Shown: positions 17,977 through 54,500 of the stretch, piece by piece
Position numbering within the stretch: the stretch's first letter is position 1
Layout: each line of letters begins with the position of its first letter
Virus record (IMG/VR): IMGVR_UViG_3300026077_000001
Direction: 5' to 3' (one strand)
DNA from: a virus
Taxonomy: Duplodnaviria > Caudoviricetes
DNA: 64,000 bases
Made by a program: the position numbers and the translations under genes
The notes under the pieces: generated by a model
Database searches by the model: none
What the model saw: the letters and a program-made list of their open reading frames with translations, nothing else
What the model was told of the DNA's origin: nothing

Positions 17977-19209
17977 TTGAGTATCACACTAAGACCACAC
18001 CAGAAAAGAGCACTCGAAGCAATGGGTGACAATGATAAAGGACAGATCATTGTGCCTACTGGTGGTGGTAAGACAATGATAATGATACAGCACGCTATCA
18101 AGCATTTTGAAGAGAGTCCAGTACCACAGACTATAGTTGTAGTTGCACCTCGTATTCTATTGGCACAACAACTATGTACTGAGTTCACATCATTGATTGA
18201 TGCTGATGTGTTACACGTCCATAGTGGTAAGAATGAGTATAAGAATACTACTGACCCTAAAGTTATTCAAGAGTGGGTAGATAACAATACAAATAATATA
18301 CTAATCTTTACAACATACCATTCACTTCATAAGGTATGTGTATTGGATGATGTTGACATAGTATATTATGATGAAGCACATAATAGCACAACTAAATCAT
18401 TTTTTCCTGCTGTTCAGGAGTTTAGTCAGAGAGAACAAACTAAGGACTATTATTTCACAGCAACACCTAAGTATGGAACTAGATCTAATTTCATAGGTAT
18501 GAACATACCTAGCATTTATGGTGAAATAATAGAGAATGTTACTGCTAGTGAGTTGATTGACAATGGTTCAATCATACCACCTACAATAGTACCATTTAAT
18601 GTTAATGGCACAAGGACTAGACAGAATGCTCACGAGTTTGATGTAGATGCAACACTAGACCTACTTGATGAGATAGATGATAATGAATTGACCCCTAAAG
18701 TGGTTGTCAGTATTGGATCTTCTAAGGTTCTTCAGTCAATGTTAGGTAGAACACCACTATTACAAGAGTTAAAAGATCGTGGATATGATGTATTACACGT
18801 CACTAGCAAGTTTGGTGCATACGTTAACGATAAGAAAGTATCAAGGTCTCAGTTTATGACCACACTAAATGAGTGGGGAACTGATGATGATAAGAAGTTT
18901 ATCGTATTTCATTACTCTATACTATCTGAAGGTATATCAGTTAGTGGATTGACTCACAGTATTATGTTGAGACAGTTGAATCTCATAGAAATGGCACAGA
19001 CAATAGGTAGAGTTATAAGGATGGATGCACGAGACAAGGCAGATATTAGTTCAAATAAACTGAAATCTGGTCAAGTGCAGTTCTATCGCAAGTCAACTGG
19101 TTATGTGTGTGTACCTATGAGCAGTAAAGCAACAGTAGCAAGATTACAAAGAGTAGTGGACGACATATTTGTTAAAGGTATCCCACCACTTCCTCTATCG
19201 TATAAATAA
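17977..19209 (+). CDS. SF2 DEAD/DEAH-type helicase (type III restriction Res-like)
   Basis: LRPHQ, PTGGGKT, APRILLAQQL, TTYHS, DEAH, TATP, LSEGI, QTIGRVIR. TTG start. Confidence 0.88.
   Translation: MSITLRPHQKRALEAMGDNDKGQIIVPTGGGKTMIMIQHAIKHFEESPVPQTIVVVAPRILLAQQLCTEFTSLIDADVLHVHSGKNEYKNTTDPKVIQEWVDNNTNNILIFTTYHSLHKVCVLDDVDIVYYDEAHNSTTKSFFPAVQEFSQREQTKDYYFTATPKYGTRSNFIGMNIPSIYGEIIENVTASELIDNGSIIPPTIVPFNVNGTRTRQNAHEFDVDATLDLLDEIDDNELTPKVVVSIGSSKVLQSMLGRTPLLQELKDRGYDVLHVTSKFGAYVNDKKVSRSQFMTTLNEWGTDDDKKFIVFHYSILSEGISVSGLTHSIMLRQLNLIEMAQTIGRVIRMDARDKADISSNKLKSGQVQFYRKSTGYVCVPMSSKATVARLQRVVDDIFVKGIPPLPLSYK
19201..19208 (+). promoter_or_regulatory. T4-type late promoter TATAAATA
   Basis: Exact consensus about 30 nt upstream of the ATG at 19240. 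Confidence 0.6.
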
Positions 19210-20206: not shown

Positions 20207-21121
20207 ATGAAAGATACCATATTATATGGAGATTGTCGAGAGACTCTCAAACAATTTGATGAAAAGGCGAGGATGTGTGTAACATCACCGCCTTATTATG
20301 GTTTAAGAAACTATGGTAACGAGGACAATCAAATTGGATTAGAACAAACACCTGAAGAATACATTAAACAATTAGTTGAAGTATTCAGGTCAGTTCGTGA
20401 TGTACTTACGGATGATGGAACACTATGGGTAAACATAGGTGACACATACTATAATTACAGATCAGATGGTAATTATCCTAAGCAAACAGTATCTAAAACT
20501 AATCAAGATTTACCAACATTTACACCAGTTAGAGGTAACAAGTTTGATAACTTAAAATCTAAGGATTTAATTGGTATACCTTGGATGTTGGCATTTGCTT
20601 TGAGGGATGATGGATGGTTCTTACGTCAAGATATAATATGGCATAAACCAAATCCAATGCCTGAAAGTGTTAGAGATAGATGCACTAAATCTCACGAATA
20701 TATCTTCTTATTATCAAAGAATAAGAGATATTATTATGATAATGAAGCAATCAAAGAACCTGCTAAGGACTGGGGAACCAGAGATAGAACCAATGGCAAG
20801 TATCACAATAAAGGAACTGGACTGCAACCACATTCAGGATTGACCAAATCATATCCTATGAAGAATAAAAGAAGTGTGTGGTCAGTCACGTCCAAACCTT
20901 ATAAAGGTGCTCACTTCGCTACTTTCCCACCTGATTTGATAGAACCTTGTATCAAGGCAGGATCTTCACAAAATGACATAATTCTTGATCCATTTATGGG
21001 ATCAGGCACAACTGCAATGGTAGCAAGGGAACTGGGTAGGCATTACATAGGATGTGAGTTACATAACGACTATTCTAACCTAGTTCAGAAGCGATTAGGG
21101 TTGTTCCAGTTCACAAACTGA
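20207..21121 (+). CDS. Beta-class DNA methyltransferase (N4-cytosine type, M.SmaI/M.Cfr9I-like family)
   Basis: VTSPPYYGLR (motif IV) precedes ILDPFMGSGTT (motif I). Also LWVNIGDTY, IIWHKPNPMPES, HEYIFLLSK, HFATFP. Confidence 0.9.
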   Translation: MKDTILYGDCRETLKQFDEKARMCVTSPPYYGLRNYGNEDNQIGLEQTPEEYIKQLVEVFRSVRDVLTDDGTLWVNIGDTYYNYRSDGNYPKQTVSKTNQDLPTFTPVRGNKFDNLKSKDLIGIPWMLAFALRDDGWFLRQDIIWHKPNPMPESVRDRCTKSHEYIFLLSKNKRYYYDNEAIKEPAKDWGTRDRTNGKYHNKGTGLQPHSGLTKSYPMKNKRSVWSVTSKPYKGAHFATFPPDLIEPCIKAGSSQNDIILDPFMGSGTTAMVARELGRHYIGCELHNDYSNLVQKRLGLFQFTN

Positions 21122-25126: not shown

Positions 25127-25248
25127 ATTGCCAAAATGTCACAAACTAACTACAAAATGACTGAAGAAACTTACAAACAACTTTGCAATCCTACCCCAAT
25201 TATTAAGTATTACTTCTTAATAAATGATCGGGTTAAGTATAACAAACG

Positions 25249-25278
25249 TTGACAAGGTATCAAACTATGATATATAAT
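25249..25278 (+). promoter_or_regulatory. Sigma70-type promoter
   Basis: TTGACA-18 nt-TATAAT. Confidence 0.7.
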
Positions 25279-25319: not shown

Positions 25320-25976
25320 ATGGACAATAGTAACATTTTATCGGACGATCTTTCATCCATAAGTGATAAGAATGAAAGCACAGTTTACGGTATGTTTATG
25401 ACACCAGTAGGGGTAAAATCTCTCACTAATCATCAACAACATAAACAGACTATATTAGATTATATCAGCAAATTGTCGCCTGAAGATGTCACAAACAGTT
25501 CCAGGAAAGATATAAACAATGGGGTGCTACAATTAGGTCAATTAGGTTTACTTAACCTAGAACAGTTCTTAACACTTAAGGAGGACATAATTGAAGCAGT
25601 TGTTGATATAAACTCTAAATCACTATGTTATGACTTAGGAGACAATCCTAATATAATTGATGATACTTTAGAGTTGACAAATAAGGGTGGAATGTATGCA
25701 CCACACGAGCAAAGTAATTGTCTTTATAGTGCAACTTATTTTGTAAATTGGGATATTAATTTACATTCACCATTACAATTTAAACGCAATGTAACATCAA
25801 CTCATTACCCAGTTATTCAATACAATCAAACACAAATTACCCCTTTCAATATGTTAGATGGAACAGTACCAATTACAGAGGGTTGTTTATGTTTATATCC
25901 ATCAAATATGGTGCGAGGGTATCAACAAAACAACGAAGGTAACCGTATTAGTTTAACATTTAACATTGGACTTTGA
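25320..25976 (+). CDS. TIGR02466-like 2OG-Fe(II) oxygenase fold with degenerate metal ligands
   Basis: GGMYAPHEQSNCLYSATYFV, LCLYPSNMVRG, RISLTFNI. Confidence 0.65.
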   Translation: MDNSNILSDDLSSISDKNESTVYGMFMTPVGVKSLTNHQQHKQTILDYISKLSPEDVTNSSRKDINNGVLQLGQLGLLNLEQFLTLKEDIIEAVVDINSKSLCYDLGDNPNIIDDTLELTNKGGMYAPHEQSNCLYSATYFVNWDINLHSPLQFKRNVTSTHYPVIQYNQTQITPFNMLDGTVPITEGCLCLYPSNMVRGYQQNNEGNRISLTFNIGL

Positions 25977-25999: not shown

Positions 26000-26329
26000 A
26001 TGAATCCCTTTAAAAAAATTGATAACGATACCTATCAAGATGATGCTGGTATTTTATACAAACCTATCCCTAATTACGAGGACTATTTTGTATCTAACGA
26101 AGGACAGATATATTCAACTAAGTGGGGTAAATGGAAGAAATTAAAGATACATTTAAACGAAAATGGATATAGACGTGTTACTTTAAGACAAAATGGTAAG
26201 ACAGTTGTAAGAAGATGTGCACGATTATGTGCTCTTGCTTATCATCCAGGCGGAACAGATTACCAGAACGTTATTCACATTGACAAAAACAAATTGAATG
26301 ACCAAAGTAATAATCTAAAATGGGTATAG
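26000..26329 (+). CDS. NUMOD4/HNH-type protein, C-terminally short
   Basis: KPIPNYEDYFVSNEGQIYS (NUMOD4), GYRRVTL, VIHIDKNKLNDQSNNLKWV then stop. Confidence 0.75.
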   Translation: MNPFKKIDNDTYQDDAGILYKPIPNYEDYFVSNEGQIYSTKWGKWKKLKIHLNENGYRRVTLRQNGKTVVRRCARLCALAYHPGGTDYQNVIHIDKNKLNDQSNNLKWV

Positions 26330-26339
26330 TTTGTATTAG

Positions 26340-26382
26340 TTTTCCACACAATTTCCACAACTAAGTAATATTTTGTGGATTA
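26340..26382. repeat. Cluster of DnaA-box-like 9-mers
   Basis: TTTTCCACA at 26340-26348, ATTTCCACA at 26351-26359, and inverted TGTGGATTA at 26374-26382. Confidence 0.55.
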
Positions 26383-26467
26383 AATAAATGGTTAAATAAA
26401 CATACTTTAGTGTTTTATATTGATGCTCTTAAATGTTATAAACCCCACGAGGAATAGCGGTGTTAGG

Positions 26468-26496
26468 AGTATATATAAGAACGGAACAGTTGTCAA
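26468..26496 (-). promoter_or_regulatory. Leftward sigma70 promoter
   Basis: The reverse complement reads TTGACA-17 nt-TATACT. Confidence 0.7.
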
Positions 26497-26503
26497 CACA
26501 TAG

Positions 26504-26525
26504 GGGACACACATATTTGTGTCAC
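26504..26525. promoter_or_regulatory. Dyad motif copy 8, between divergent promoters
   Basis: GGGACACACATATTTGTGTCAC; the CA-N10-TG core lies 34 and 35 nt from the two -10 boxes. Confidence 0.6.
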
Positions 26526-26531
26526 AAATGC

Positions 26532-26560
26532 TTGACATTTTTCCACAATTCGTTTATACT
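26532..26560 (+). promoter_or_regulatory. Rightward sigma70 promoter with TTTTCCACA in its spacer
   Basis: TTGACA-17 nt-TATACT; the 9-mer is at 26539-26547. Confidence 0.8.
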
Positions 26561-26603
26561 AACTGTATGAACACTAATTAACACAAACTCGCTCTAATTT
26601 CCA

Positions 26604-26762
26604 ATGGGAAGGACTTACAAACGTAACGACACGTATGTATCAAATAGACCAAAAAGTTTGAGAGAAAAGAGAAACAAATCAAAGCGTAATAAGACGCTTG
26701 ATTATAAACAATCCAACTCACAATCATTCCAGGAAACTAACACAAATGGACAAACAAATTAA
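26604..26762 (+). CDS. Small basic protein (52 aa)
   Basis: Read manually: MGRTYKRNDTYVSNRPKSLREKRNKSKRNK... Confidence 0.55.
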   Translation: MGRTYKRNDTYVSNRPKSLREKRNKSKRNKTLDYKQSNSQSFQETNTNGQTN

Positions 26763-51500: not shown

Positions 51501-54500
51501 ACTCTGCAACTTATGATGCAGCGATGTTATATCTGAATACTGAGAATGGACTGAAGCACGTTACTGATGAGACTGAAGAAACTGCCTTTGCTATGAAGAT
51601 GGCTAGGGATATGTCTGCTTTGGCGATCCAGAACAAGTTAGGGTTTAATCCCTACCCTGATTATTCTGCAGGTGGTGGAGCTGGTGGCGGTCAAGGTGGC
51701 GGTGGCGGCTTCGGTGGAGGTGGCGGTGGTCAAGGTGGTAACCAAGGTGGCGGTGGTGCAGCACGTGGTGATTATGATAATAATGAGTCTGGTAATAAGG
51801 CATATAACGCTGCTGATGAAATTAGAAATAACTTAAGATTTATTGCTTCTACTGCTGTTGGTCGTGGTGTTTCTCAGTACCCATCATTAGGATTTGGTGG
51901 ATATGGTTATCAGTCTTGTGTTGATGATTGTGTTGATATTTTAGAAGCATTGATATTCAACTTATCACACGGTGGTAATAACAAGATGTGGTATGCCACT
52001 GAGTTCTATGTTACTGATGCTAATGCTGTTCAGCATATCAATGGTCAACCAAATGAAGTTAAGTATGTATTTGAACAAGCAAGAGATATTGCTATTCAAG
52101 TAATGAGACAACAGTTAGTTGCTACTAATGGTTATACAGAAGGTGATCCAGTATATGATGATGAAATTACTATCGATCAACAAACTGCATCTGGTCAACA
52201 TACTCCAACAGCAGCAACTTATGATCCTGCAACTGGTGATTTAGTTTTAACTTTAGGTGCATCACACAATGTAACTACTAACGATACAATTAGAATTAAT
52301 ACAAATTCACTTGTATTCACTTGTGATCAAGATGATCATCAGACTCAACATACTTATCCAAGAATTTCCGACCCAGCAGCTGTTGCTTTACTACCCGTCA
52401 CGAACGTAAGTGGTAACGATATTACAGTCAATGTTGGTATAACAGAGAGAGTTAACTTTGATGCTAAAGATTCTACTTATGATCCTGAAACAGGTCTATT
52501 AACTCTTGATATTGGATCTCATAGTTTAAGAGAAGGTCAAACACTTAAGATTCTTCAGGATGAATTAAATTATCGTTGTTCTCAGGATAATTATAGATCT
52601 ATTCATAAGTATCCTCGTGCTACTGATCCAGCAGTTGATAAAGCATTAGATATCGTTTCAGTTGGAACAACTCACCATACAGCAACTTGGGCAGACTTCA
52701 ACCCTGTTACTGGTATGTTGAATGTTACCGTTCCTAATCACGGATTTAAGAATGGTGACAAGATTAGACTTGCTAACGATTCTATGACATTCACTTGTGA
52801 TATGGATGAGCATTACAGCAAGAAAACATATCCAAGACTGTCTGATCCTGCTAGTGGACGTTTCCTACCAATCTCAAACGTAACTAAGAATACTTTTGGG
52901 ATGAGTATTGGTAAGACTCCTATCAAATACTTCACACCATCTCAAGCAAACTATGATCCTGAAACAGGTGGTTTAGAACTCATACTTGGTGTACACGGTT
53001 TAACAACTGGTACTCATATTAAGTTAGCACCTAACTCCTTAACATTTACTTGTAAGGAAGATGATGATGCTACCTTCCACACATATCCAAGAGCTCAAAC
53101 AACTACTGTTACTCCATCTGATGCTTCTTACAATCCTGTTAATGGTCACTTAACTGTTACTGTTGCTAACCACGGATTCAAAGTTGGTGAAATGGTTCAC
53201 GTTGAGAAGAACGGAATTGTGATGACTTGTGATATGGACGGAAATGCTTCTGAGCATCCATATCCAAGACAAGATGACCCTGCAAACAATTCTTGGATGA
53301 GAATTGAAGCAGTATCTACAAATACATTTACCTTTAAAGTTGGTGAATCACCTAAAGTAAGTTTCACACCAACAGCAGTGGATTACACCCCTACTACTGG
53401 TGATATGAAGATGACCATTGGTAATCATAGTCTTACTGCAGGAACTGCACTTAAGATTGCTGAAGGTGGTATTACATTTACTTGTGCACAAGATAGTCAT
53501 CAAACTCTTCACCCTTATCCTAGAAATACAACTTATACAGTATCTGACATTAATAACGGTTCTTATGATCCTGAAACAGGAATAATGACCGTTACAACTG
53601 CTGCTAATCACGGTCTTCAGGATGGTGATAAAGTTAAGTTTGCTGATGGTGCTATTACATTTACTTGTTCTATGGACGGTAATGGTTCTAACCATCCATA
53701 TCCAAGATCAACTGACCCTGCATCTGGTAAGTGGTTAGAGATTGATGTAACTGGTAATACAACATTTACTGTTAATGTTGGTAAGACTCCTACTGTTGGA
53801 TTTGCTCCAACAATGGTTGATTACAATCCAACAACAGGTTTAATGACATTGACCATTGGACAGGGACATAATTTATCTGTTGGTCAATCTGTAAGGTTCT
53901 CTCAGAATTCACTTACATTCAAATGTGCCTTTGATAATTATGCTACTGATCACTCATATCCTCGTGCTTCAGGTCAAGGTGGTGCTACTCAAGATGACCC
54001 ATTCTATGATACTGCTTGTGCAATTACTCAGACTACAGCAGACACAATTACAGTTCAAGTTCTAAGTTCACAACCATCTACTAACACAACTGCTCATACT
54101 TGGCAGGCTCCTACTAAGTTAACTCCAACTGGAGCATCATATAACCCATCAACAGGTGTTATGTCTCTTACTGTTACTGGACACGGTATGGTAAATGGAG
54201 ATCATATTAAAGTTGATGATAATTTTGTAACCTTTACTTGTGGTCAAGATAGTGATCAAACTAATCACTCATATCCAAGACCAAAAGATCCTGTATCTAA
54301 TAAGTTTATTCCTATCACATACATTGATGCTAATACCTTTAGTATTCAAGTTCTAGAGAATGTACCTTCAACCAATACTACAACTCACAACTTTGTAAGT
54401 GCTGTTGCTAATAGTATTGAGAGATGTGTTGTAAGAGCTGGTGGTATTTACACACACGCTTATGTTTCTTCAACTGCTGGTTCTCTAACTGCTAAGAAAG

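Follow-up and report, generated by a model that had tools for sequence, protein, structure and literature searches.

A conserved intergenic module in T4-like cyanophages as candidate replication origin or host-DnaA-reading switch

In phage T4, the replication origins oriF and oriG are located at uvsY and at gene 34, respectively. In phage lambda, ori-lambda is subject to transcriptional activation driven by pR and stimulated by DnaA, and in phage P1, DnaA boxes flank the origin oriR; both phages need their own initiators (O protein and RepA, respectively) and iterons. T4-like cyanophages rank among the ocean's most abundant viruses; to our knowledge, their replication origins are unmapped.

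The T4 origins oriF and oriG are defined by a promoter that fires into an A+T-rich unwinding element, and oriE requires a promoter of the early type (Kreuzer and Brister 2010, PMC3016281). An earlier note on the locus analysed here described T4 origins as R-loop origins made of a promoter and an unwinding element. Cyanomyoviruses lack motA and asiA, and just a single theta origin has been predicted for Syn9 (PMC2984593). CfrI of S-PM2 is an RNA of ~225 nt at psbA that is antisense to a homing endonuclease gene (Millard et al. 2010, cited in PMC2984593). TTTTCCACA is the “species-specific” cyanobacterial DnaA box, which is present in the oriC of S. elongatus, Anabaena, and Cyanothece; in electrophoretic mobility shift assays (EMSA), domain IV of Cyanothece DnaA bound oligonucleotides bearing this box (PMC4674748). 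A literature search, which left the Syn9 genome and transcriptome papers outside its scope, retrieved no paper tying cyanophages to DnaA boxes.

Setting and anatomy of the module

All long open reading frames (ORFs) of the window, i.e., the entire 64-kb stretch of DNA that was analysed, are located on the plus strand, including a giant ORF of 8,596 aa. Taken together, this layout, the Pfam and PHROG matches (Kyano_Gp96, 2OG-Fe(II) oxygenases, and baseplate-like proteins), and weak DNA and protein matches to the cyanophages P-RSM6, S-WAM1, P-TIM40, and S-SZBM1 assign the window to a T4-like cyanophage of the family Kyanoviridae. The closest record is an IMG/VR contig that is 98% identical over the module region. 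The features of the module, which occupies a gene-free gap, are listed in Table 1.

Table 1. Features of the module and its flanks in the window, and loci of repeats and spacers in related phages and host genomes.
Feature	Position	Strand	Remarks
HNH/NUMOD4 homing-type endonuclease gene, 109 aa	26000..26329	+	Pfam NUMOD4, PHROG HNH endonuclease
Module gap	between HNH/NUMOD4 gene (26000-26329) and 52-aa ORF (26604-26762)		274 bp, gene-free
DnaA box 1, exact TTTTCCACA	26340..26348	+	43 nt before core
DnaA box 2, ATTTCCACA	26351..26359	+	one mismatch; 11 bp from box 1
Degenerate inverted DnaA box, TAATCCACA	26374..26382	-	two mismatches from cyanobacterial box
AT-rich core, consensus ATTAAATGnTTAAATAAACATAcTTnnGTGTTcTATA, ~37 nt	26377..26426		conserved, single-copy; candidate unwinding element; nhmmer E = 6e-10
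Leftward sigma-70-type promoter, TTGACA-17-TATACT	26468..26496	-	-35 at 26496-26491, -10 at 26473-26468; 11/12
Dyad GACACA-N6-TGTGTC	26506-26523		CA-N10-TG core at 26508-26521
Second, overlapping dyad ATTTGTG-N-CACAAAT	26515-26529		
Rightward early promoter of small-ORF operon, TTGACA-17-TATACT	26532..26560	+	-35 at 26532-26537, -10 at 26555-26560; 11/12
DnaA box 4, exact TTTTCCACA	26539..26547	+	inside rightward promoter spacer
Basic protein, 52 aa (MGRTYKRND...RPKSLREKR)	26604..26762	+	first gene of rightward operon; PHROG 1464/3226
TTGCCY repeats in related loci	L009 2268-2310; L071 739-775; L041 2236-2345; L007 2294-2302, 2439-2447		
Box-bracketed spacers in host genomes	L280 1638-1932; L281 1485-1774; L282 1530-1817		genomes G004, G057, G016

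In the module, two exact and two near copies of the host-consensus DnaA box cluster within 210 bp. The 64 kb contain just two copies of the exact form, TTTTCCACA, both of which are located inside the module, and all three copies of TTTCCACA in the same 64 kb are also found there. The earlier note had recognized the cyanobacterial form of the box, which is indeed identical to the published one (PMC4674748), and had correctly placed an exact copy in the spacer of the rightward promoter. It had also listed three box-like 9-mers on the left, the first two of which stand as plus-strand boxes, whereas for the third, the minus-strand reading TAATCCACA (26382-26374) is preferable; the homologous position is occupied by an exact TGTGGAAAA in one related locus (L016) and by TGTGGATAA in another (L017).

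The DnaA box is the only repeat family between positions 26250 and 26700, and no other direct repeats, i.e., no iterons of the kind that mark an iteron-type origin, were found in this interval. Three boxes with at most one mismatch lie within 210 bp at the module, despite their scarcity in the window as a whole, and host DnaA would be their most economical ligand. In the entire window, there are 14 boxes with at most one mismatch, compared to 25 ± 4 expected from dinucleotide shuffles, and each of the 100 shuffles contained at least 14; this under-representation may reflect an avoidance of stray DnaA sites.

The AT-rich tract that had been noted at about 26380-26430 is real, with an A+T content of 80%. 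A profile of the core (nhmmer) has exactly one match each in the window and in the complete genomes of S-WAM1, S-SZBM1, P-TIM40, and P-RSM6, with E-values of 6e-10 to 5e-7 and a next-best match at E > 4. The core (26377-26426), which begins ~35 nt after the predicted start of the leftward transcript (~26461), is part of the 100-bp stretch with the lowest helix stability in the 64-kb window; by the same measure, it takes second place at 60 bp and fourth place at 40 bp. It is also among the top 0.03-0.04% of the 40- and 60-bp windows with the lowest stability in S-WAM1 and S-SZBM1; in the AT-richer phages of Prochlorococcus, its stability is unremarkable. DnaA-trios were not detected among 40 variants of the core, whose longest in-phase TAA/TAG run (1-2) is below shuffled expectation. 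Readings of the core as a late promoter, an NtcA site, or a LexA box were judged by eye to be poor fits and were dropped.

The back-to-back occurrence of TTGACA-17-TATACT on both strands was confirmed, as was the position of the dyad between the promoters, with C26508 located 35 nt from the leftward and G26521 located 34 nt from the rightward -10 box; the second, overlapping dyad had been missed. The shared dyad is one of eight copies in the window of an early-promoter dyad (CA-N10-TG, 34-35 nt before a -10 box) and is a member of the general early-promoter family of this phage, not special to the module. In relatives, its half-sites GGACAC (left) and TGTCACA (right) keep constant distances to the two -35 boxes. 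Another of these dyad-type promoters precedes the gene of a 410-aa SF2 helicase (ResIII/DEAD/Helicase_C; 17977-19209), which may be a counterpart of UvsW, the protein that removes origin R-loops in T4. A gp59-like helicase loader is encoded by Syn9.

The leftward promoter, the only minus-strand promoter found in the earlier note, is not the sole promoter-like match on this strand: matches at 20250 and 14438 also score 11/12; both lie inside coding sequence. The number of promoter-like matches in the window (56) corresponds to the expectation from shuffles (52.4 ± 6.2). As had been stated, there is no ORF downstream of the leftward promoter; a conserved small ORF on the minus strand is also lacking, with an ATG in the core that yields 3-17 codons and is absent from S-WAM1, and no intrinsic terminator follows the promoter. 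A structured small RNA originating from the leftward promoter was considered and dropped because RNAalifold predicted 0 pairs and no common fold among 22 divergent leftward transcripts. No Rfam family was detected (no meaningful match at E ≤ 1 between 24000 and 29000; two matches elsewhere were far below gathering scores).

Metatranscriptome contigs covering the rightward operon start at 26588 and 26489, which places the operon in RNA libraries. One sequencing run leaves 26325-26587 uncovered, and one contig crosses the entire region; the contigs give neither strand nor ends and are therefore neutral with respect to a leftward RNA. An overlapping pair of promoter-like sequences on opposite strands is also present at 25236-25278, upstream of a 2OG oxygenase gene (plus-strand TTGACA-18-TATAAT at 25249, 12/12; minus-strand TTGATA-16-TATACT at 25263, 10/12). 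The entire module is bracketed by a 14-nt inverted repeat with 86% complementarity (26328-26341 and 26576-26589), which is probably due to chance, since its left arm differs in relatives that are 93% identical.

Conservation among cyanophages

The relatives of the module were reached via its flanking proteins. A near-identity search of the phage collection yielded no match, a distant search of that collection matched only the downstream 94-aa ORF, and a degenerate pattern of the core had no match in IMG/VR. In S-WAM1, P-TIM40, S-SZBM1, and P-RSM6, two small downstream ORFs are syntenic, and the intergenic DNA of the module is alignable across the same four phages. The core profile recovered 54 loci (48 distinct), on the same strand and 385-704 nt upstream of the 94-aa ORF. 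The module is present in six isolates (S-WAM1, S-SZBM1, P-TIM40, P-RSM6, Syn9, and S-PM2) and in 46-48 distinct IMG/VR loci; the copies of Syn9 (52.56-52.76 kb) and S-PM2 (19.23-19.35 kb) consist of boxes and a weak match to the core, and their leftward promoters are degenerate.

The elements of the module share a common order. The series opens with TTTTCCACA boxes, two to four in number and frequently two direct plus one inverted, which are followed by the ~37-nt core (ATTAAATGnTTAAATAAACATAcTTnnGTGTTcTATA), 50-100 variable nucleotides, the leftward -10 and -35 boxes, a dyad-type motif, the rightward promoter, and an ORF starting with MGRTYKRND. This small basic ORF was the first gene past the module in every case compared; its look-up in a protein atlas returned unnamed clusters alone, all below 0.9. 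A rearranged order was observed in one lineage (L018-L024; e.g., L018, 1915-2110), where the core comes first and the boxes, every one of them inverted, are located between the core and the leftward promoter. The Syn9 record carries two small ORFs, gp86 and gp87, across its copy of the module (L131, 1478-1798; Syn9, 52477-52797), and these gene calls are probably spurious.

The position of the boxes relative to the core is conserved as well. In 234 kb of related loci, 108 of the 127 exact copies of TTTTCCACA fall into the interval from -130 to +330 relative to the core. A plus-strand box 43-45 nt (mostly exactly 43 nt) before the core was found in most of the 48 distinct loci; a further box of the relatives is located at -32/-33 or -22. 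A box in the rightward spacer (+156/+157) is restricted to the clade of the window, whereas other clades have boxes at +300 to +350 within the first ORF, where the window's clade has none. In many lineages, these boxes occupy the same position of the protein in either orientation and translate as FST or, if inverted, as VEK/VEN, which points to a selection on the DNA word rather than on the peptide. In one locus (L008, 2609-2629) and its relatives, the boxes in the small basic ORF translate as DFSTDFST, whereas the inverted boxes elsewhere translate as VEK or VEN, so the ORF tolerates whatever the DNA word encodes.

The module is the sole box cluster in the genome of S-WAM1 and holds four of the eight boxes in that of S-SZBM1. 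P-TIM40 and P-RSM6, both of which were isolated on Prochlorococcus, have retained the core and both promoters without any exact box, and DnaA is therefore not essential to the module everywhere. In P-TIM40, the two sites that read TTTTCCACA in the window (in the left cluster and in the rightward spacer) both read TTTTTGCCC. Lineages without exact boxes have short TTGCCY repeats (e.g., ATTGCCTTAATTGCCT, TTTTGCCCCTTTTGCCT) just past the rightward promoter (Table 1). Repeats of this type, including TTTTTGCCC of P-TIM40, could be alternative protein sites.

Both promoters are widely conserved. Among the 46 distinct loci, the leftward -35 box reads TTGACA in 42, and the spacer has a length of 17 nt in 41 and of 18 nt in the remainder. 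In the leftward -10 box, T1 is kept in 44 loci, and A2 and T6 in 41 each, whereas positions 3-5 are free to vary; such conservation of the functional positions only is characteristic of a genuine sigma-70-type promoter. The rightward promoter matches the consensus at 10-12 of 12 positions in 44 of the 46 loci (the other two score 5) and starts 41-43 nt from the leftward -35 box in 40 of them.

The genes that flank the module are less uniform. In S-WAM1, P-TIM40, and S-SZBM1, the HNH gene is absent at this location and a 2OG-Fe(II) oxygenase gene (homologous to 25320-25976 of the window) abuts the boxes instead. The HNH gene directly to the left of the module is therefore an insertion specific to certain lineages, namely the clade of the window and some of the metagenomic lineages. 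It is placed exactly between the oxygenase gene and the first DnaA box and looks like a homing-endonuclease insertion beside a conserved non-coding target. The flanking oxygenases of the window and S-WAM1 are only 36% identical; the N-terminus of the 52-aa ORF is 78% identical to its counterpart in S-WAM1. Judged from these sequence comparisons, the conservation of the module is far above that of the neighbouring genes.

Comparison with known origins and regulatory elements

The module shares the two defining parts of the T4 origins oriF and oriG. Its leftward promoter, which is of the early host-sigma type like that of oriE, corresponds to the promoter of the minimal origin, and its core corresponds to the AT-rich unwinding element downstream of that promoter. 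The MotA box at -30 of oriF and oriG is not present in the module, which has a consensus -35 box (TTGACA) there instead, because cyanophages lack MotA. The resemblance to oriE comprises the early host-sigma promoter, short direct repeats, and the adjoining small ORFs. However, the repeats of the module are host DnaA boxes, and no T4 origin has been reported to carry such boxes (PMC3016281). Moreover, T4 has several origins, whereas the module of the cyanophages, a candidate origin, is single-copy.

With bacterial oriC, whose basal unwinding system combines DnaA boxes, DnaA-trios, and an AT-rich unwinding element, and with its cyanobacterial form, the module has in common a cluster of exact host-consensus boxes that are spaced in pairs at 9-12 bp and directly adjoin an AT-rich stretch of low stability. 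Unlike oriC, it has only three or four boxes and no DnaA-trios, and it shows no GC-skew switch; its AT-rich element is the target of a promoter, and it lacks any sequence similarity to the box-bracketed host loci examined. The analysis of GC and AT skew that had been proposed as a check gave no origin signal in six complete genomes, with no inflection of the cumulative GC skew at the module; coding-strand bias dominates the signal. The GC skew is positive almost everywhere because transcription runs one way, and in the detrended cumulative GC skew, which is dominated by the same bias, the module is nearer to the maximum than to the minimum.

The host sample comprised 61 genomes of the picocyanobacterial family, which were reached by a box-pair scan through a Vulcanococcus contig. 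Only 8 of the 61 genomes contained the exact box as tight direct pairs, and in the five genomes studied in detail, the exact box was not enriched over its reversed control. A recurrent element in these hosts is an AT-rich spacer of ~280-290 bp that is bracketed by convergent exact boxes (TTTTCCACA ... TGTGGAAAA) and located between a gene of ~500 aa and a gene of ~247 aa (Table 1); it may be a host locus controlled by DnaA. These spacers have nothing in common with the phage module beyond the boxes. An origin of the module as a copied host oriC was rejected, based on the lack of enrichment of the exact box over the reversed control in the five genomes and the dissimilarity of the host spacers examined.

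Like lambda and P1, the phage combines host DnaA boxes with transcription beside a putative origin, and the boxes of the module are located on both flanks in many lineages, as in P1. In contrast to both phages, the module has no iterons except the boxes, and no initiator gene is evident. With CfrI, the module shares a (predicted) transcript from the opposite strand, a T4-like cyanophage genome encoded on one strand, and an adjoining homing endonuclease gene. However, the endonuclease gene at the module has been inserted in certain lineages only, and the predicted transcript has non-coding DNA as its conserved target.

Possible functions of the module

Comparative sequence evidence identifies the module as a conserved, single-copy, replication-linked control hub of Kyanoviridae. 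It is the best candidate for the unmapped replication origin of the related phages or, alternatively, for a switch that reads host DnaA. The reading that we favour, to which we assign slightly less than an even chance, is an origin of the T4 promoter-plus-unwinding-element kind, with DnaA acting as an accessory factor and as a brake on the rightward operon. In this scenario, the two back-to-back early promoters that share one dyad would be served by the RNA polymerase of the host carrying its primary sigma factor. The rightward promoter would express the early operon of small ORFs, and the gene-less leftward promoter would transcribe, 35 to 85 nt downstream, into the easily melted AT-rich core. 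Built like oriF, oriG, and oriE of T4, the module would serve as an origin for early, origin-dependent replication, where the leftward transcript opens or primes the DNA at the core. Host DnaA bound to the boxes would be an accessory that aids the opening of the core or times the firing of the origin, and it would damp the rightward early operon via the box in the spacer or, in other clades, via the boxes in the first ORF. DnaA binding, leftward transcription, R-loop formation or priming, and the initiation of replication are all predicted steps of this scheme.

The earlier note had proposed a hybrid origin or a DnaA-sensing switch, and the present results support this proposal in part. It agrees with the anatomy of the module, which is under strong selection across Kyanoviridae, with its presence as a single copy, and with the low stability of the core. 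Against a simple origin stand the missing origin signal in the strand skew, the lack of DnaA-trios, the missing exact boxes in two phages of Prochlorococcus, and the degenerate leftward promoters of Syn9 and S-PM2. A leftward promoter without an ORF or a conserved fold fits a transcript that acts on the DNA itself.

A DnaA-gated switch of early transcription that involves no origin is possible, if rather unlikely. Through the boxes, host DnaA, which reports the replication state of the cell, would act as a repressor or roadblock of the rightward operon and would also tune the divergent promoter pair; the core would serve as an architectural or UP-like element or would bind some other factor. 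Such a role is consistent with the exact box in the rightward spacer of the window's clade, a position from which DnaA would keep RNA polymerase off the promoter, and with the boxes of the other clades, which lie ~100 nt past the rightward start within the first ORF. It is also in line with the occurrence of the shared dyad type at seven other promoters of the window, with a GC skew that carries no origin signal, and with the established role of DnaA as a transcription regulator that binds closely spaced pairs of sites (PMC11317965). However, a switch leaves unexplained why a gene-less leftward promoter has been kept at its functional positions only and why the first box has a fixed spacing to a single-copy core of low stability; moreover, most boxes are more than 100 nt away from either promoter, beyond the core.

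Another reading, which is improbable, is that the leftward promoter gives rise to an unstructured RNA that, as an antisense transcript or an insulator, counteracts read-through from the genes upstream (HNH endonuclease or 2OG oxygenase) in the manner of CfrI; box-bound DnaA would be the roadblock at which this RNA ends. In the window, the HNH endonuclease gene is situated directly downstream of the leftward promoter, which is not followed by an intrinsic terminator, and with CfrI, an antisense RNA has been documented for a T4-like cyanophage (PMC2984593). Yet most relatives that have kept the leftward promoter lack the HNH gene, the transcript has no conserved structure, and the conserved single-copy core would be left without explanation.

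The cluster of boxes might act as a sink that is amplified with the phage DNA, titrates host DnaA, and stops initiation at the host chromosome, and the boxes are in fact exact, tightly paired (9 to 12 bp apart), and, allowing up to one mismatch, fewer than expected elsewhere in the window. This is nevertheless very unlikely, given just three to six boxes per genome, a strict geometry of boxes, core, and promoters that titration does not need, and the retention of the other parts of the module in lineages without boxes. A chance juxtaposition of motifs in AT-rich intergenic DNA, with which the number of promoter-like matches in the window (56 versus 52.4 ± 6.2 in shuffles) would be compatible, is already refuted by the comparative data, mainly because the same architecture with fixed spacing recurs in six isolate genomes and in over 46 divergent lineages; in addition, three boxes with at most one mismatch are crowded into 210 bp of a window in which such boxes are scarce.

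If the module is indeed an origin of the kind favoured here, T4-like cyanophages might, unlike T4, initiate the first replication round from a single defined origin to which host DnaA is recruited, although this stronger claim is doubtful. It would make the module a hybrid between the promoter-plus-unwinding-element origin of T4 and the oriC of bacteria, and the DNA synthesis of the phage and the neighbouring early operon would be coupled to the replication state of the host, for example via the control of DnaA by day and night or by nutrients.

As a conserved single-copy element of ~300 bp, the module is a precise target for experiments. It also provides a landmark for the annotation of metagenomic contigs of Kyanoviridae and flags spurious small ORFs across its copies, such as gp86 and gp87 of Syn9. 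If host DnaA is used, the replication of these phages would be tied to the cell cycle and to the light and nutrient state of their hosts, which bears on the dependence of cyanophage DNA synthesis on host physiology.
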